Below are positions 3,573 to 20,938 of a DNA stretch of 64,000 bases, piece after piece (position 1 is the first letter of the stretch; every line of letters starts with the position of its first letter). The notes beneath the pieces were generated by a model. That model was not told the origin of the DNA and did not search any database. It was given only the letters and a program-made list of their open reading frames with translations. Made by a program: the position numbers and the translations under genes. Source of the stretch: Gemmatimonadaceae bacterium (GTDB lineage Bacteria > Gemmatimonadota > Gemmatimonadetes > Gemmatimonadales > Gemmatimonadaceae); NCBI GenBank assembly GCA_045803545.1, contig JBJMOW010000004.1, positions 192,001 through 256,000 on the forward strand. Direction: 5' to 3'.

Positions 3573-5748
<2,176 letters not shown>

Positions 5749-5799
5749 CCAATATATACGCGCTGCGAGACATTCGACCTCACAATCACCGAGGTAGCT

Positions 5800-11572: not shown

Positions 11573-12339
11573 GCCACCGCTCCGGCAGCCGCAGGAGTGG
11601 AGCTCTGAATCCAATCGTAGCCCTTCTCCTCGAGCTCGAGCGCCAGCTCTTTCCCGCCTGACTTGACGATTCTGCCATTGGCGAGAACGTGCACGAAGTC
11701 AGGAACGATGTAGTTGAGCAAACGCTGATAGTGGGTGACCACGATCGTGGCGTTGTCGGGCGAGCGAAGCTTGTTCACGCCCTGCGCGACGATGCGAAGC
11801 GCATCGATGTCGAGGCCTGAATCGGTCTCATCGAGAATCGCGAGTCGCGGCTGGAGAACCGCCATCTGAAATATTTCGTTGCGCTTCTTCTCGCCGCCCG
11901 AGAATCCCTGGTTCACTGAGCGTGACAGCATCGACTCGTCCATGTCGACGAGCTTCAGTCTGTCCTGAACGAGATCGAGAAACTCCAGCGGATCAACTTC
12001 CTCCTGGCCGTTGGCTTTGCGAATCTCGTTGTACGCGCTGCGCAGGAAGTAGGCGTTGGAAACGCCGGGGATTTCAACCGGATACTGAAACGCGAGAAAG
12101 ATTCCGTTTTGCGCGCGGACTTCAGGGTCCAGCTCCAGCAGATTCTGGCCGTTATACGTCACGCTACCGCCAGTTACTTCGTACGAAGGATTCCCCGCGA
12201 GAACCTGTGCAAGCGTGGATTTGCCGGATCCGTTCGGCCCCATCACTGCATGCACCTCGCCCGCATTCACTCGTAGCGTAATGCCGCGAAGTATTTCACG
12301 ATCGCCGATGCCGGCGTGAAGATCATTTATTACGAGCAC
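11569..12339 (-). CDS. sufC: Fe-S cluster assembly ATPase SufC
   Basis: MGPNGSGKST, AFQYPVEIPGV, FSGGEKKRNE, LDETDSGLDID. Confidence 0.96.
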   Translation of the reverse strand: MLVINDLHAGIGDREILRGITLRVNAGEVHAVMGPNGSGKSTLAQVLAGNPSYEVTGGSVTYNGQNLLELDPEVRAQNGIFLAFQYPVEIPGVSNAYFLRSAYNEIRKANGQEEVDPLEFLDLVQDRLKLVDMDESMLSRSVNQGFSGGEKKRNEIFQMAVLQPRLAILDETDSGLDIDALRIVAQGVNKLRSPDNATIVVTHYQRLLNYIVPDFVHVLANGRIVKSGGKELALELEEKGYDWIQSSTPAAAGAVA

Positions 12340-12519
12340 GAAACCATTGATTGAAAGTTGTCTGAATCGCGTAAATCGCCTGGCTGAACAACGTCCAGTT
12401 TGCCGTGAAAGGATATCCCGGGGTGCGTGGGCCGGACCGCAGCCAGTTCCACCCAGCAGAGAGTTTGTCGCGGAGCTTTCTGAGCAGCATTAGCCGGGGT
12501 TGGCGGAATTGCGTTGATC

Positions 12520-13956
12520 TTAACCGACGCTTCCTTCGAGTGTGATACCAAGCAGCTGCTGCGCCTCCACCGCGAACTCCATCGGCAGCTCCTTGAACAC
12601 TTCGCGACAGAAACCGCTCACAATCATCGACACCGCATGCTCGGCGCTCAGTCCGCGCTGCTTCAGATAGAAGATCTGATCCTCACCGATCTTTGAAGTC
12701 GACGCCTCATGTTCGAGCGTCGCCGAATTGTTCTGCACTTCGATGTACGGAAACGTATGCGCACCGCACTTGTTGCCGATCAACATCGAGTCGCACTGTG
12801 TGTAGTTTCGCGCGCCGGCCGCCTTCGGCAAAACGCGAACGAGTCCGCGATAGCTGTTGTTTCCTTCTCCGGCGGAGATTCCCTTCGAAACGATCGTCGA
12901 CTTCGTGTTTCTGCCGATGTGGATCATCTTGGTGCCGGTGTCAGCCTGCTGCTTACGGTTCACGACGGCGACCGAGTAGAACTCCCCAGTTGAATTGTCG
13001 CCCTGAAGGATCACGCTCGGATATTTCCAGGTGATGGCTGATCCTGTCTCGACCTGCGTCCAGGAAATCTTCGAGTTGACACCAGCGGCTTTGCCACGCT
13101 TGGTAACGAAATTGTAGATGCCTCCTTTGCCCTCTGCATCACCGGCGTACCAGTTCTGCACCGTCGAGTACTTCACGGTCGCGTTGTCGAGTGCGATCAA
13201 CTCCACGACCGCGGCATGCAGCTGGTTTTCGTCACGCTTGGGTGCCGTGCATCCCTCGAGGTAGCTAACTGACGCGCCTTCGTCGGCGATGATCAGTGTC
13301 CGCTCGAACTGTCCGGTGTTCTTACTGTTGATACGGAAGTAAGTCGACAGCTCCATCGGGCACTTCACGCCCTTTGGCACATACCCGAACGAACCGTCGC
13401 TGAACACCGCCGCGTTGAGGGCCGCGAAGAAGTTGTCGCTGTGCGGCACGACCGTGCCGAGATATTTCTCGACCAGGTCCGGGTGATTCTGGACCGCTTC
13501 CCCGAATGAGCAGAAGATGATGCCGAGCTTCCCCAGCTCATGTTTCATCGTGGTGCCGACAGAGACGCTGTCGAAAATCGCATCGACCGCGACACCAGCG
13601 AGCATTTTCTGCTCGTTGAGCGAGATACCGAGCTTCTGATAGGTCTTCAGCAGCTCCGGATCTACTTCGTCGAGACTCTGTAGCGGCTTGACGCTCTTCG
13701 GCGCCGAGTAGTAGACGAGGGCATTGTAGTCGATCGCGGGATACTGGACGTTGCCCCAGTGCGGCTCCTTCATCGTCAGCCAGCGACGATACGCCTTTAG
13801 CCGCCACTCCAGCATGAACGCGGGCTCGTTCTTCTTCGAGGAGATGGTGCGGATGATGTCTTCGTTGAGGCCGGGCGGGACAGTGTCCGTCTCGACGTCG
13901 GTGACGAACCCGTACGCGTATTCCCGATTGACCAGCGCCTCAATTCCCGAACTCAT
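12520..13956 (-). CDS. sufB: Fe-S cluster assembly protein SufB
   Basis: [40 protein letters not shown]; start trimmed to ATG 13956. Confidence 0.97.
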
Positions 13957-13996
13957 TCCAACTCCTTGGCGTTTCTCAACTTCCCTTCTTAGATTC

Positions 13997-14026
13997 AATC
14001 TAAAGTAATCCTGTCGGGATAGTCAA
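13997..14026 (-). promoter_or_regulatory. Putative sigma70 promoter for sufBCD
   Basis: Minus strand TTGACT-N18-TAGATT. Confidence 0.4.
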
Positions 14027-14123
14027 GCGAACGGCTGTGTATCTATCCCCTTGTCTTGTCAATACTTACGCGACATGAGGCAAGCGGCCGCCCAGTTGGC
14101 CGGACACAATCTAGAGGCACCGA

Positions 14124-14531
14124 ATGACTGGCTCCGCGCGACCTCTTTGGGGGTCGATGGATGGCAATTCCGAGTTTGAGGCCGTGGCTTCGTTGAGTGA
14201 TCTGGCGGAGGGAACGGTTTTACAACGGGTGCGATCGAGTGGTGACGCAGTCTGCCTCGTTCGCTTTCAGAACGAAATTTCCGCTCTGAGCGACATCTGC
14301 ACTCATCAGCATTTTTCAATGTCGCTTGGCGACTTGCTCGCGAATGGCACGCTGCAATGCGCATGGCACGGCGCGAGTTACGACTGCCGGACCGGTGAAG
14401 TGAAGCAGGTTCCGGCCACCAGTCCGCTGCCGGTGTTCCAGGTGCGTGTCGAAGGCGATCAGATAATGGTCGGTCCGCGCTGCAAGCGCGTCGACGGGAA
14501 GTACGAGCCATCAACTGTACGCGTTCCGTGA
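14124..14531 (+). CDS. Rieske [2Fe-2S] ferredoxin (suf-associated)
   Basis: CTH...CAWH Rieske motifs. True start could be the later ATG (MDGNSEF). Confidence 0.88.
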   Translation: MTGSARPLWGSMDGNSEFEAVASLSDLAEGTVLQRVRSSGDAVCLVRFQNEISALSDICTHQHFSMSLGDLLANGTLQCAWHGASYDCRTGEVKQVPATSPLPVFQVRVEGDQIMVGPRCKRVDGKYEPSTVRVP

Positions 14532-15742
14532 ACCTCCGCTCAGACTTTCCCATCCTCGCGCGAAATCCCGATCTCCATTACCTGGATTCGGCGGCGACAT
14601 CGCAGAAGCCGCAGGTTGTGCTCGATGCGCTTCGGGAGTTTTACGAAACGTCGAACGCCAATCCGCATCGCGGCGCGTACTCACTCTCGGTGCGCGCGAC
14701 CGAGCTCTATCATCAGTCGCGAGCGCTGATCGCCGAGTTCCTTGGCGTTCGTGATTCGGATTGTCTGATCTTCACGCGCGGCACAACCGAGGGTCTGAAT
14801 CTCGTCGCCGGCTCATGGGGCTGGGCAAACGTCGGGTCCGGCGACGAGATCGTCGTCACCGCTCTCGATCACCACGCGAACTTTGTCCCGTGGCAGGTGC
14901 TCGCTGCGCGGAAAGGTGCAAAGTTCCGCATTTGCGAGCTCACGCCGGATGAGAGAATCGATCTCGATCACCTGGCAAAACTGGTGAGTGCGCGCACGAA
15001 GGTGGTCGCGTTCAACCATGTGTCCAACGCGGTCGGCACGATCAATCCGGTCACCGATATTGTGCGGATCGCTCGCGAAAACAGCGACGCGATTCTCGTC
15101 TGCGATGGAGCGCAAAGCGCTCCCCACTTTCCGGTTTCGTTCGATTCCCTGGGCGTCGACTTCTATGCGTTCAGCGGCCACAAAATGCTGGGGCCGATGG
15201 GAATCGGCGGCTTGATCGGGACGCGCGCAATGCTGGAGTCGATGCCGCCTTATCAGACTGGCGGAGACATGATCGAGTTCGTTCACGACGATCGCACGAC
15301 CTGGAACGTGTTGCCGCACAAATTCGAGGCGGGAACACCGAATGCCGCCAACGCGGTCGCTCTCGCCGCAGCAGTCGATTATCTCGCGGGGATTGGAATG
15401 GACCGGGTGATCGCACACGAGCGTTCACTAATATCGCGCGCTCAGGAGAGGCTTTCCGCTGTCGAAGGCATTCGTATTTACGGGCCGCCGCCCGCCGAGC
15501 GCAGTGGAGTCGTCAGCTTTACGATGAACGATGTCCATCCGCACGACCTTGCGACGGTTCTCGATGGCGAGGGCGTCTGCATTCGCGCGGGACATCACTG
15601 TGCACAGCCACTCATGCGTCGCCTCGACGTGCCGGCGACGGCGCGCGCGTCATTCTACGTATACAACGATGAGAGCGACATCGACGCACTCGTTGCTGGC
15701 ATGCTCAAGGCGCGCGAGATCTTTTCTTATGCCGCGTCCTGA
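14528..15742 (+). CDS. sufS: Cysteine desulfurase SufS
   Basis: YLDSAATSQKP, FSGHKMLGP (PLP Lys), RAGHHCAQP. Confidence 0.96.
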   Translation: MNLRSDFPILARNPDLHYLDSAATSQKPQVVLDALREFYETSNANPHRGAYSLSVRATELYHQSRALIAEFLGVRDSDCLIFTRGTTEGLNLVAGSWGWANVGSGDEIVVTALDHHANFVPWQVLAARKGAKFRICELTPDERIDLDHLAKLVSARTKVVAFNHVSNAVGTINPVTDIVRIARENSDAILVCDGAQSAPHFPVSFDSLGVDFYAFSGHKMLGPMGIGGLIGTRAMLESMPPYQTGGDMIEFVHDDRTTWNVLPHKFEAGTPNAANAVALAAAVDYLAGIGMDRVIAHERSLISRAQERLSAVEGIRIYGPPPAERSGVVSFTMNDVHPHDLATVLDGEGVCIRAGHHCAQPLMRRLDVPATARASFYVYNDESDIDALVAGMLKAREIFSYAAS

Positions 15743-16172
15743 TTCCGCCGAGCTTTCGGCGCTGTACCAGGAGATGATCCTGGATCATTACCGGCGGCCG
15801 CGCAACAAAGGCACAATGGAGAACGCTGACGCCAGCGTGGAGATGAAGAACCCGCTTTGCGGGGACGAGATCGGATTGCAGGTCGTGTTCGACGGCGATC
15901 AGATCAGCGATGTGAAGTTCTCAGGACGCGGCTGCTCGATCTCCCAGGCGTCCGCCTCGATGATGACGCAACTGCTCAAGGGCAAGACACGTGCGGAGAT
16001 TGAATCCATTCGCACGCAATTTCGCGAGCTGATGCTTGGAACTACGAAGGCGAGTGACGATCTCGGGCCTTTGCGTGCGCTCTCTGGAGTCGCGCGGTTT
16101 CCAGCGCGTGTGAAATGCGCCCTCCTGGCGTGGAACGCCCTGGAGAGAGCGCTGTCAGCGAATCAAAGCTGA
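15729..16172 (+). CDS. sufU: SUF-system sulfur-transfer protein SufU
   Basis: LYQEMILDHY, NPLCGD, GCSISQASAS, RVKCALLAW; start trimmed to ATG 15729. Confidence 0.93.
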   Translation: MPRPDSAELSALYQEMILDHYRRPRNKGTMENADASVEMKNPLCGDEIGLQVVFDGDQISDVKFSGRGCSISQASASMMTQLLKGKTRAEIESIRTQFRELMLGTTKASDDLGPLRALSGVARFPARVKCALLAWNALERALSANQS

Positions 16173-17238: not shown

Positions 17239-17423
17239 AAGCGTACTTAATCACCACCGGTGTCGTTTTCGGGCTGCTGACAATCATTCACCTGTGGCAG
17301 ATGTTTTCGGAGACAGGCCTTCACGGCAACCGGGATCCATGGTTCGTCGTCATCACACTGCTCTCGGCAGGCTTCTGCATCTGGGCCTTCCAGCTACTAC
17401 GGAAGACGTCACGCACGACGTGA
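17235..17423 (+). CDS. Small 2-TM membrane protein
   Basis: ATGA overlap with the upstream gene; two hydrophobic helices. Confidence 0.65.
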   Translation: MKAYLITTGVVFGLLTIIHLWQMFSETGLHGNRDPWFVVITLLSAGFCIWAFQLLRKTSRTT

Positions 17424-18674
17424 GCGGTCGATAAGCTCGACGATCTCCTGCCGTCGAAAAAAGGTCGCCCAGCCATGCGCATCGCTGTCGTGCGCGCTGT
17501 CGCGAATGGTGGAGTCCGCGCCCGCCTCGAGCAGTGCGCGCGCGACATCGACGTGACCTGACAGCACGGCCAGATGTAGAGGAGTAAGCATCGAACCCCA
17601 GTGATTCCAGAGCCCGTCTGGATTCGCACCTCGGGTCAGGAGCCATCTGACAGCGGCGATGTTTCCACGTTTGGCCATCAGATGCAGTACGCCGTCCCTG
17701 TTGAGCGTTGACGGGTCGCTTTCCAGGATCTCCGCGGCAGCCTGTAGATCCCCGAGCCCGAGTGCCACGGTCAAGGTCGGTCCGACTCGCTCACGCATTG
17801 CCCTCAGTACCGGAGCGTCGACGTCGGGCTCGGTTGCATAGGCGACGGCTGTGAAACCGGATGCATCGGTCGCCAATGGATCTGCTCCAAGCTCCAGCAG
17901 TAACTCAATCATCCCTCGCAGCTGTGCGTGGACGGCAAAATGGAGCGGCAGCCGAAAATTTTCGTTGTGGCTCTGCGGCCGTCTGAGTTGCGCCGGGTCG
18001 TGCGCAACGATGCGACGAACTTCATCCGCATCGTTCAGCGCCATCGCCGAGTAGATATGGTGACGTGCGCCCCGACTGACGAGGAAGTCGGCGATCGCGC
18101 GACGCGCGGCATTGTCGACGACTTCCCAACCCGTTGCCCAGCCAATCACCTGGAGCGCGTGATCGTCGCCCTCACCGATGACGTCGCCGCCGGCGTCAGC
18201 GAGTCTCCGCACTATCTCGAAATGACCCGCCGCCGCCGCCCAATGCATCGCGTAGGTATTGTCGCCTTTTTCTCGGGTGTTCGGATCGAGCCCGCGATCG
18301 AGCAGTAGGTCAACGACATCGAGGTGACCGTTGTGTGCGCCGACGTGAAGCAGAGTGTGCTCGTAAGGCTGGTTGCGCGCGTAGAGCTTTTCGGGATGCG
18401 CCTCGAGCAGCGAGCGCAGCTTGTCCGCGTCGCCGCTGCGCGCGGCAGCGAACAGCTGGCCATCCAGAGTCAGGGAATCGACATGCGCTTTCAGAGCGCG
18501 CCAACTGGGAAAGCCATACCGGCGTGCTACGTCGAGTTGGGCTTCGGCCAGTTTTGCCCTGGAGCTCGTTTTACGAATCTCTTGCAGGCGTTGCTTCGCC
18601 TGCTTGCGAAGCCATTCGAGATTCGGCGTGGCCGGCAAGCTGAGCGCGCCGGACTCGGAGGTCTGCTCGGACAT
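17409..18674 (-). CDS. Ankyrin-repeat protein with N-terminal LP..PNLE.LRKQAK...A.L.VA..YGF.SW module
   Basis: Multiple TLLH/TPLH..A..G ankyrin repeats; start trimmed to ATG 18674 behind an AGGAAAGAAGG SD. Confidence 0.9.
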   Translation of the reverse strand: MSEQTSESGALSLPATPNLEWLRKQAKQRLQEIRKTSSRAKLAEAQLDVARRYGFPSWRALKAHVDSLTLDGQLFAAARSGDADKLRSLLEAHPEKLYARNQPYEHTLLHVGAHNGHLDVVDLLLDRGLDPNTREKGDNTYAMHWAAAAGHFEIVRRLADAGGDVIGEGDDHALQVIGWATGWEVVDNAARRAIADFLVSRGARHHIYSAMALNDADEVRRIVAHDPAQLRRPQSHNENFRLPLHFAVHAQLRGMIELLLELGADPLATDASGFTAVAYATEPDVDAPVLRAMRERVGPTLTVALGLGDLQAAAEILESDPSTLNRDGVLHLMAKRGNIAAVRWLLTRGANPDGLWNHWGSMLTPLHLAVLSGHVDVARALLEAGADSTIRDSAHDSDAHGWATFFRRQEIVELIDRSRRA

Positions 18675-18820
18675 AGGGCACCTTCTTTCCTTTGAAAGAG
18701 CGAGCTCTTTCGTCGCGCCCGATGTCCGCATTGCGGGCGAGGAATGAAGGTAATGGCGATAAACTGTAGAAGTGGGTTGAACCCTTTACGCGGACCGTCG
18801 GCCGCCCCTCGGCCCTGACC
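18675..18820 (-). promoter_or_regulatory. Candidate structured 5' leader RNA of the ankyrin gene
   Basis: Stems GTCCGCGT/ATGCGGAC, GGGT-TCA-ACCC, GAAAGAG/CTCTTTC and AGGGC/GCCCT; anti-SD CCTTCATTCCT is 10/11 complementary to the SD region. Confidence 0.55.
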
Positions 18821-18889: not shown

Positions 18890-19045
18890 GCGGCGTCGAA
18901 TCCGCGCCCAACCTCTTGAGACTCCGCCCGGCCGGAGTCCGTAGCGAGGCAAAGGGGGGCAAACTCCCGGATTGATCGTCAGTCCTTTGCGTCACCGCGG
19001 CGCGCTGCTGGGAGAGCACCGTGGTGTGTCCAAAGGAGATTGACG
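18890..19045 (+). promoter_or_regulatory. Candidate structured 5' leader RNA (three hairpins plus loop-loop pairing)
   Basis: GACTCCG/CGGAGTC, GCAAAGGG/TCCTTTGC, CACCGCGG/CCGTGGTG; loops CTCCCGG and CTGGGAG are complementary; TTGACG -35-like element at 18857. Confidence 0.55.
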
Positions 19046-19714
19046 ATGACTTCCAACAAGGATTTCAAGCGCCTCGTTCGCGCTCGCATGAAGAAGACCG
19101 GTGAAGCGTACACCACCGCCCGGTCGAACGTCCTCAAGAAACCCAAGAAAAACACGGCGATCGATTACGCCGGGCTTGCCGGCATGAGTGACTCCGTGAT
19201 CGAGGAGAAAACTGGCCGCAATTGGGAGCGCTGGGTTAAAGCGCTCGATCACGATGGCGCCGAGAAAATGCCGCATGGTGAGATCGCTGCGCTGGTGAAA
19301 AAAACTTACAAGGTCGGCGAGTGGTGGTCGCAGACCGTGACCGTTGGCTACGAGCGCATCAAAGGACTTCGTGCCAAAGGTCAGCGGCGCGACGGGAGCT
19401 ATGAGGCGAGTAAGTCTCGAACCTTCGACGTGCCGGTCAAAACTCTGTTCGCGGCGTGGGCAGACGGTGTTACCCGCCGGCGCTGGTTGAGTGGAGCGAC
19501 AGTGCGAATTCGCACTGCCACCGAACCAAAGTCAATGCGCCTCGACTGGAACGAATCCATTGTTGCCGTTGGATTCGCGCCGAAAGGAAGCTCCCGGAGC
19601 TCCGTTGCGGTCCAGCACACCAAGCTGCCCGATCGTGAAACAGCTAAGGAGCTGAAGGAATACTGGGCGGCACGTCTCGACGCACTCGGCAATGTGCTCG
19701 CCAGGCGATCATAG
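19046..19714 (+). CDS. Protein with basic N-terminal KRLVRARMKKTGEAYTTAR module, DUF4287-like middle and SRPBCC/AHSA1-like C-terminus
   Basis: AAGGAG SD 7 nt before ATG 19046; EEKTGRNWERW...HGEIA...WWSQTV; SKSRTFDVPVKTLFAAWAD...LKEYWAARLDAL. Confidence 0.8.
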   Translation: MTSNKDFKRLVRARMKKTGEAYTTARSNVLKKPKKNTAIDYAGLAGMSDSVIEEKTGRNWERWVKALDHDGAEKMPHGEIAALVKKTYKVGEWWSQTVTVGYERIKGLRAKGQRRDGSYEASKSRTFDVPVKTLFAAWADGVTRRRWLSGATVRIRTATEPKSMRLDWNESIVAVGFAPKGSSRSSVAVQHTKLPDRETAKELKEYWAARLDALGNVLARRS

Positions 19715-19822: not shown

Positions 19823-20938
19823 ATGAGCATAAGCCACAACCTGGCATGGACCGCGACACGCGAGGACTACGAGCGCGAAGCGGCAGCGTTGTACGATGCG
19901 CTGCAAGCTCGCCAGGACTCGGCGCTGTGGAATTTCAAATGGATGCATCCGCATTTTCGCGGCAAGACCGTCACCGACGTCGATCCAACCATTCTCGACC
20001 TCGACGATGCGCGACTCGTCGTCGCCCATGAGTATGGGTTCCCGGCGTGGTTCAATCTCATGAAATTCGCGGACGACGTTGGACAGGACGGGCAGCCAGC
20101 ACAGTTCGAGCGTGCGGTCGACGCTGTCGTGTCAGGTGACATCGCTACGCTCAGAGCGATGATTGGCGATGATCCGCAGCTGGTTCATCGGAGATCGGCA
20201 CGCTTTCACCGCGCAACGCTGCTGCACTATATCGCGGCAAACGGAGTAGAAGGCGTCCGCCAGAAAACTCCTCCCAATGCCATGGAAGTCGCGCGGACGT
20301 TACTGGACGCCGGGGCGGATCCAGACGCGCTTGCGATGATGTACGACAACCTGTGCACCACGATGAGCATGCTGGTCTCCAGTGCGCACCCCGCCGGTGC
20401 CGGACTACAGGCAGATCTCGCCGAGCTGCTGTTGGATTACGGCGCAAAGCACAACGGGCCGGGATCAGAGTGGCAATCCGACATCATGACCGCGCTGGTG
20501 TTCGGATACTGGAAAACGGCGGACCGCTTGGCGAAGCGTGGTGCCCCGGCCGACAATCTTCCCACGGCTGCGGGACTCGGCCGCGTCGACGAAGCGACCC
20601 AGCTACTTCCGGCAGCGGATGCACGAAGCCGACATATCGCACTCGCGCTCGCCGCGCAGCACGGCCATGCCAACGTCGTACGAGTTCTGCTCGACGCGGG
20701 TGAGGACCCCAATCGATTCTGCCCGGAGGGGTTTCACTCCCACGCGACTCCGTTGCACAACGCGATTTCCGCCGGCCGGGATGACGTCGTCAAGCTGCTG
20801 CTGGATCGCGGGGCGCGCACGGACATCAGGGATACGATTTTCGACGGGACGCCGCTCGATTGGGCGGTCTACTGCAAGAAGCCGGAAATCGTCGAAGAAC
20901 TACGCAACCGCGGAGCTCCTACCAGCAACGCAGGGTAA
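19823..20938 (+). CDS. Ankyrin-repeat protein with N-terminal A.LVVA.EYGF..W module
   Basis: ATLLHY, ALALAAQHGH, ATPLHNA and GTPLDWA ankyrin motifs. Confidence 0.88.
   Translation: MSISHNLAWTATREDYEREAAALYDALQARQDSALWNFKWMHPHFRGKTVTDVDPTILDLDDARLVVAHEYGFPAWFNLMKFADDVGQDGQPAQFERAVDAVVSGDIATLRAMIGDDPQLVHRRSARFHRATLLHYIAANGVEGVRQKTPPNAMEVARTLLDAGADPDALAMMYDNLCTTMSMLVSSAHPAGAGLQADLAELLLDYGAKHNGPGSEWQSDIMTALVFGYWKTADRLAKRGAPADNLPTAAGLGRVDEATQLLPAADARSRHIALALAAQHGHANVVRVLLDAGEDPNRFCPEGFHSHATPLHNAISAGRDDVVKLLLDRGARTDIRDTIFDGTPLDWAVYCKKPEIVEELRNRGAPTSNAG

Follow-up and report, generated by a model that had tools for sequence, protein, structure and literature searches.

What stands in front of the ankyrin-repeat gene at 17409–18674 on the minus strand (421 amino acids from an ATG at 18674), and to what does it respond? 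The question arose from a first-pass annotation of a 64,000-nucleotide stretch of a Gemmatimonadaceae contig, here called the window, in which the leader of this gene was described as a translational switch, either riboswitch-like or protein-responsive. Inspection of the sequence confirmed that all the elements it named are there, on the minus strand and at every position assigned to them: AGGGC (18816–18812) and GCCCT (18679–18675), proposed as an outer pair closing at the ATG; the stem strands GTCCGCGT (18795–18788) and ATGCGGAC (18731–18724); a small hairpin, GGGTTCAACCC (18784–18774); an anti-Shine–Dalgarno (anti-SD) strand, CCTTCATTCCT (18750–18740), complementary at 10 of 11 positions to the SD region AGGAAAGAAGG (18691–18681); and a further hairpin at 18711–18694. 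Comparative analysis indicates that the leader, which occupies 18809–18675 (minus strand) directly 5' of the gene, belongs to a family of double-pseudoknot RNAs found in about ten bacterial phyla. Judged in this way it is a cis-regulatory RNA that is real, widespread and not catalogued so far, and most likely the RNA half of a portable RNA–protein feedback cassette.

Folding of the window leader by itself gave a z-score of −1.05, with 26 of 200 shuffled sequences equally stable; a single-sequence fold of this kind is uninformative, and the support for the structure is therefore comparative. Pairing statistics were taken from a MAFFT alignment of 76 leaders. Many of its rows had been retrieved by a pattern in which P1 is fixed and the variant rows were hand-picked, and it is in this sample that P1 (GTCCGC/GCGGAC) was paired in 99.8% of cells, with two-sided changes at all six pairs. 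L288, L311, L312, L313 and L319 were omitted from the alignment; P1 is mismatched in L311–L313 and L319. The helix P0 was paired in 85.9% of cells (two-sided changes at 4/4 pairs), the 3-bp stem of the small hairpin in 96.9%, and P2b in 73.2%, a figure depressed by register shifts (two-sided changes at four of five pairs). None of 500 shuffles matched the observed values, and slid controls reached 35–49%. When a structure descriptor was run on 169 unselected upstream regions, collected by searching for the protein domain discussed below, the core was found in 154 and the standard P1 in 115; most of the other real leaders, with a non-standard P1, carry compensated P1 variants.

An alignment-free comparison of cognate and non-cognate duplex stability in 92 non-redundant GTDB leaders gave the same picture, with z-scores of −17.7 for P2, −8.5 for P0 (mutual information 0.67), −8.9 for P2b and −18.3 for the anti-SD/SD duplex, while controls lay between −1.9 and +0.7. 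P0, P1, the small hairpin, P2b and the anti-SD/SD pairing thus covary and are conserved among homologous leaders. A reading of the motif as a DNA operator was dropped, because compensatory changes in pseudoknotted helices require a single strand.

The architecture predicted from these data begins with a junction core at the 5' end, made up in order of P0, linker, P1 strand, G-NNA, hairpin and A. A second, variable linker of some 20 nt connects the core to a long P2 hairpin, whose loop would donate the second P1 strand and whose distal part would mask the SD up to the start codon. In the window copy, all on the minus strand, the core is closed by P0, formed by AGGGG (18809–18805) and CTTCT (18772–18768), both assigned by covariation. 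A 9-nt linker (18804–18796) with conserved GC and CC positions leads to P1; relative to P1, C occurs in 95% and 83% of the 92 leaders at −3 and −2, and G in 78% and C in 85% at −7 and −6, positions for which we infer a tertiary role. The covarying 5' strand of the pseudoknot helix P1, GTCCGC, lies at 18795–18790, and variants of it are seen. It is followed at 18789–18773 by the purine-rich junction GTAAA and the 3-bp hairpin GGG/CCC, with a variable loop and a conserved A, which follows the CCC in 90% of the 92 leaders. The variable linker to P2, weakly structured by family comparison, has 17 nt here (18767–18751); across 85 leaders its median length is 20 nt and its median self-fold −1.0 kcal/mol. 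The covarying anti-SD strand forms the 5' side of P2a at 18750–18740 and pairs with the SD in both the minimum free energy and the centroid fold of the window leader. P2b follows (CGCCCG, 18739–18734, with CGGGCG, 18721–18716, supported by its two-sided changes and duplex score), and within the P2 hairpin loop lies the covarying 3' strand of P1, GCGGAC (18729–18724), flanked in the family by loop segments of median length 4 and 2 nt. Hairpin P3 (18711–18694) sits in the 3' bulge of P2, and the 3' side of P2a (18691–18681) is the SD region itself.

Two of these helices, P0 and P2b, had been missed in the first-pass annotation, and several of its proposals were altered by the comparison. The pairing of anti-SD with SD held, in the family as given above and also among 67 members of the closer subfamily (z −4.1). 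The stem drawn as CCGA../..TCGG survives as the 6-bp core of P1, whereas its CCGA/TCGG extension is possible in only 4 of the 67 (z −0.8), and the outer AGGGC/GCCCT pair, which just 5 of the 67 could form (z +0.6), was abandoned. The small hairpin is real as a 3-bp stem; its likening to a T-loop did not stand. A T-loop has a conserved 5-nt consensus of fixed length, and the loop TTCAA, shared by 53 of 67 close relatives, varies in both sequence and length across the 92 leaders. P3, noted earlier as GAAAGAG-CTCG-CTCTTTC, was found, with variants of its stem, in 65 of the 67 subfamily leaders, yet the hairpin is missing from most of the wider family and is a subfamily insert.

The proposal of a leader switch also depended on transcription starting upstream of the anti-SD. 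A candidate −35-like hexamer, TTGCCA (18850–18845, minus strand), matches TTGTCG/TTGCCG of orthologues in position (54 of 86 loci), and 17 nt past it lies a candidate −10-like hexamer, CAGATT (18827–18822), where orthologues have TAnnnT. The latter ends 26 nt 5' of P1 in the window copy, and the promoter-like hexamers end 26–29 nt 5' of P1 in 54 of 86 orthologous loci, which puts the predicted start near 18815, upstream of the whole motif. A simple promoter scan of this leader copy found no site, and no terminator-like site was found in the leader on the minus strand. In a soil metatranscriptome run that shared a small fraction of sequence words (one study, available as contigs, to which DNA may have contributed, and therefore given no weight here), a 151-nt contig identical over 18664–18805 was seen; it ends in an adapter-like tail. 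Mapping contigs from that run were confined to this leader and that of the divergent neighbouring gene with their first codons (18664–18805 and 18905–19123), and none of them lay on the ankyrin coding region past its first 11 bases.

Opening the SD and start codon of the window leader is predicted to cost about 14 kcal/mol (−55.7 versus −41.9). Among 85 leaders, the predicted median cost of opening the SD was 11.0 kcal/mol when P1 was undocked and 15.1 kcal/mol when it was docked; docking made opening costlier in 65, left it equal in 7 and made it cheaper in 13. We found no conserved mutually exclusive helix, as two candidate alternatives showed no cognate preference (z +1.2 and −0.7), and the leader is therefore probably not a classic two-helix switch. 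Some riboswitches, too, work without mutually exclusive alternative pairing. What covariation does support is a conserved cis-acting structure over the SD. Like a riboswitch, the leader couples a conserved tertiary core to an expression platform (the covarying double pseudoknot and the SD hairpin); like an autogenously regulated leader, it is a structured 5' leader that includes or adjoins the ribosome-binding site.

The source genome holds this single copy, as determined by covariance model (CM) search of its contigs; a second match (E 0.04) was discarded as it sits within a coding region. A DNA search found the leader in three of 40 relatives, and a protein search of 109 genomes of the genus added further orthologues. 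A pattern scan of GTDB gave at least 121 matches, 80 of them named, belonging to what we take to be Acidobacteriota, Actinomycetota, Gemmatimonadota, Verrucomicrobiota, Planctomycetota, Alpha-, Beta- and Gammaproteobacteria, Myxococcota, Eisenbacteria, Armatimonadota and Eremiobacterota. Among 12 pattern matches in viral contigs, one was a real leader. No Rfam 15 family matched the leader at its gathering threshold, the best local matches (E 0.94–7.5) falling far below it, and a full-text literature search, with subscription papers outside its scope, returned no description of the family. A term search of the main texts of PMC11109978, PMC8632094 and PMC5737381, whose supplements could list a matching motif, and of eight supplements of PMC2864571 found no mention of "ankyrin"; in PMC11109978, a motif counts as a protein-binding candidate when it lies upstream of a nucleic-acid-binding gene. 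Identity with the Solibacter-1 motif was dropped, the sequence being different.

The presence of the leader goes with the N-terminus of the encoded protein and not with its ankyrin repeats. Residues 13–67 (18638–18474, minus strand) are predicted to form a basic three-helix domain of 55 residues (AlphaFold pLDDT 91.5) with conserved R23, K24, K27 and Q46, and this domain is the likely partner of the leader. Its profile matches 10,786 clusters (50% identity) at E ≤ 0.001, and in nearly all of the best 150 of these it lies near the N-terminus. What it is joined to varies: ankyrin repeats were found in 50 of 58 proteins scanned; nine of 19 selected non-ankyrin payloads matched DUF1835 (two), PhyH, methyltransferase, DUF6624, APH, beta-lactamase, glyoxalase or TPR and the other ten matched nothing, and VOC is also among the payload folds. 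The payloads have no common pathway or metabolite.

Several searches show how closely the two go together. Of the at least 121 GTDB matches, 97 of those listed have the domain just downstream. Among the 24 others listed, 18 score below 8 bits as leaders, by an HMM trained on domain-bearing matches, and resemble chance matches in coding DNA. Six are real: two lie at contig edges (one already beginning the domain), three belong to broken genes, and the last, L195, has its leader at the head of an operon whose first gene, an ankyrin gene, lacks the domain and whose second, overlapping it at stop and start, bears it; this position of the domain fits action in trans. Out of sample, a CM search of five whole genomes yielded six more leaders, all of which precede the domain. 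Leader and candidate binding-protein gene thus co-occur in one transcription unit. Starting from metagenome loci of the domain, the strict leader motif was present in 68 of 80, and a profile trained on other data gave 15 bits or more at 72 of 73 evaluable loci.

Domain-first searches, with the centre genome counted, found the domain in 21 of 301 genomes in the class of G127, 15 of 350 in the class of G125 and 9 of 201 in the phylum of G126. The strict profile, whose best reverse-strand control score was 11.3 bits, recognised leaders at 15 of 29, 12 of 16 and 6 of 8 domain ORFs, respectively, and at 3 of 6 on plasmids. Many of its misses are divergent leaders, recovered by the structure descriptor, by CM or by eye. 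Truly leaderless domain genes were limited to L363, the second gene of L195, L304 (a fragment) and a clade of degenerate paralogues to which the window gene at 19823 belongs, with L298 and L332 as possible further cases. Leaders that can be recognised, though their hairpin and P1 pairs are changed, also seem to accompany very divergent domain subfamilies (L277, L320, L321, L293, L296 and L133), some in AT-rich genomes, and the family would therefore be wider than the CM detects.

Further evidence comes from homologues of the gene in which modules have been lost. From 51 loci found by the ankyrin body or gene start, one (L037) was dropped as too short, and in the remaining 50 the domain was called by HMM and the leader by CM R1. 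Both were present in 33, neither was intact in 15, two had the domain only and none had the leader only; without three rows from unpublished genomes (L027/G051, L035/G050 and L359/G1050) the counts are 32, 13, 2 and 0. Kin are not independent in these counts, and on a quick IQ-TREE tree they reduce to 10 changes, at least 8 of them forced by branches with SH-aLRT ≥ 95. In L031, L032, L033, L034, L036 and L345 the start codon and the first 8–17 codons survive although the modules on either side of them are missing, as if there had been two deletions, one on each side; L031, where synteny is kept, is sister to this ankyrin gene. Because leader and domain adjoin, the joint losses in L340 and L219 may be single deletions. 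Among the 15 loci with neither intact, L033 and L340 retain the 3' half of the leader. Four of the five genomes with a domain-less copy hold intact leader and domain genes elsewhere, so the loss is locus-specific. Such joint retention and loss would be expected of a cognate RNA–protein pair and would be hard to explain for a metabolite sensor. Of the two kinds of ligand first suggested, a protein therefore fits better. Two exceptions argue against strict pairing, namely L339, which has the domain and a deleted core, and L363, with the domain and no leader within 8 kb.

The domain itself points in the same direction. In leader-linked copies, K or R occupies three surface positions of helix 1 in 98, 90 and 100% of cases (257 rows, 253–254 filled), compared with 50, 17 and 33% in internal repeats (13 rows, just 6–9 filled), which nevertheless retain A, G and W of the core; these basic residues are also much less conserved in the leaderless paralogue clade, a small sample. 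Against binding of the leader by the domain speaks its predicted structure, which has no clear match to a known RNA-binding fold: the best Z in a fold search was 4.5–4.6, no Foldseek match reached E ≤ 0.001, and there was no meaningful sequence match in the PDB. Unnamed clusters of 76–97 amino acids in the ESM Atlas (0.83–0.84) are leads only. Weak matches to Pfam PF20066 (Glyoxalase_8 N-terminus; 22 of 64 domain sequences, best E 9e-4; window domain 18 bits, below the curated cut-off of 23.7) and to NCBIfam PRK05973 (18 of 64, best E 2e-6) suggest a wider superfamily with these N-terminal tags. The literature search found no RNA-binding role for either, and a suspected link between ankyrin genes and bleomycin resistance was dropped, as it was not confirmed there.

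Seven alphaproteobacterial loci (L130, L131, L294, L303, L306, L392 and L393), located 5' of glyoxalase/VOC-type genes (payload confirmed by Pfam for L130 and L131), carry a short variant in which a local hairpin takes the place of the long-range P1 and the junction is unchanged. The anti-SD hairpin is absent from them and the SD mostly missing. Because the junction is kept without a long-range P1, we infer that it is the recognised element. In five of the seven, bases 5' of the ATG are complementary to the 5' strand and could disrupt the core; this pairing shows no covariation and is missing in the other two. A search of the order for further short variants returned the centre genome alone.

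Taken together, these data make recognition between the protein and the RNA, in one direction or the other, probable. The mechanism that we favour, tentatively and at a little under an even chance, is that the domain binds its own leader and represses its own translation. The double-pseudoknot leader would bury the ribosome-binding site of the gene; the basic first helix of the domain (R23, K24, K27) would recognise the junction of P0, P1 and the hairpin; and binding would lock P1 to the P2 loop, so that the median energy predicted to be needed to open the SD would rise from 11 to 15 kcal/mol; 30S standby on the single-stranded linker could be hindered as well. Relief, more speculatively, might come from engagement of the C-terminal part with its own target, which would draw the protein off the mRNA. 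Repression is favoured because the helices are all mutually compatible and the ribosome-binding site lies deeper in the docked state. The E. coli rpsO operator and S15, as described in PMC3985624, offer a parallel in a 5' leader pseudoknot by the ribosome-binding site and in a gene product that acts on its own translation, as proposed here. In contrast to that system, the window gene is not ribosomal, the putative partner is a small detachable N-terminal domain found on many unrelated payloads, and the leader consists of a junction core with a docked SD hairpin.

Two points weigh against repression: the SD is predicted to be buried even when undocked, so that a repressor could be superfluous, and the pairing before the ATG in the short variants hints that core formation frees the start. 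A ribosome-binding site buried without docking, together with the lack of a conserved ON helix, leaves room for activation or for standby of the tisB kind. Activation would mean that the leader is off by default and that positive feedback arises when the domain binds the core, perhaps only after the C-terminal part has found its target, so that the SD helix is opened or bypassed. It would account for an SD buried by 11–15 kcal/mol whether docked or not and for the competing pairing in five of the seven short variants. None of the 15 domain-less genes keeps an intact leader, and loss of an activator would silence the gene unless the anti-SD were also lost; L033, which retains the 3' half of the leader, has no anti-SD. 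We consider activation unlikely, however, as P1 and P2b both covary, the loop segments beside P1 suit their simultaneous formation, the linker, with a median of 20 nt, leaves room for docking without strain on the SD helix, and the short-variant pairing is neither covarying nor universal.

A riboswitch, with a small molecule or ion in a pocket at the docked P1 and junction and the domain linked only through a common pathway, is an improbable explanation. It draws on the conserved unpaired junction bases, the broad phyletic range and a resemblance to the ZTP (pfl) aptamer, which has a 5' helix-junction subdomain, a variable linker, a downstream hairpin and a pseudoknot between junction and hairpin (bioRxiv 10.1101/521930). 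The window leader differs from it in sequence, in an extra junction hairpin and in a docking hairpin that itself covers the SD. Membership of the ZTP class was rejected, since there is no match to the Rfam model and the genes have nothing to do with purine or folate metabolism. Three observations count against a small-molecule ligand: we found no real leader at genes or operons that have no connection with the domain; wherever the domain has gone the leader has gone too, even if other copies remain in the genome; and the payloads have no metabolite in common.

To our knowledge, no antisense RNA or processing is known for the leader family, in contrast to tisB. The tisB standby element (PMC7708055) has a similar combination of 5' pseudoknot, single-stranded stretch and stably sequestered ribosome-binding site, whereas the pseudoknot in the window docks on the ribosome-binding-site hairpin itself and is tied to a protein domain. 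That no trans partner exists, the pseudoknot and linker acting as a standby site with low, constant output through the buried SD (as in tisB, where the first two features are needed for translation through a sequestered site) or the nascent, nearly always N-terminal domain acting in cis, is very unlikely, because standby alone leaves co-loss with the domain unexplained and L195 keeps its leader with the domain on the second gene.

Besides the ankyrin gene, a divergent gene in the window (19046–19714, plus strand; DUF4287/AHSA1-like) has a conserved leader of its own at 18890–19045 (plus strand). Its sequence is unrelated to that of the ankyrin-gene leader, with a candidate anti-SD at 18984–18990 facing an SD near 19031, and it has no Rfam match. 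It was present in 13 of 40 relatives. The basic N-terminal motif of this gene occurs in 20 of 151 sampled actinobacterial genomes, with the leader at 15 of 17 parsed loci (three from unpublished genomes), before at least three payload types as judged by eye. This looks like a second cassette of leader and N-terminal tag, and a different leader tied to a different basic motif would mean that the design recurs. A second ankyrin gene (19823–20938, plus strand) bears a degenerate copy of the domain without basic residues and without a leader; its paralogue clade also occurs in L019, L031, L046, L047 and L048. Elsewhere in the window, the only Rfam family matched was the TPP riboswitch (RF00059, 61.5 bits, 5632–5750, minus strand), and Suf-like iron–sulphur cluster genes, judged from translations, lie at 12330–16172 (SufB- and SufC-like on the minus strand; Rieske ferredoxin, SufS- and SufU-like on the plus strand).

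The wider proposal, which we regard as possible and put forward with some reserve, is that of a portable two-part cassette: the double-pseudoknot leader and a new RNA-binding domain of 55 residues, attached to ankyrin, glyoxalase/bleomycin-resistance, methyltransferase, phosphotransferase and beta-lactamase folds in over 10,000 clusters, would make of each payload a one-component sensor governing its own translation, with a second, unrelated cassette back-to-back in the window. If true, this would be an RNA-level counterpart of one-component transcription factors, and it would give a testable identity both to an orphan RNA class and to an unannotated domain of 10,786 clusters. Should the pair hold, it would provide modular translational feedback for almost any sequestering, modifying or detoxifying protein, and a small orthogonal RNA–protein part for synthetic biology.
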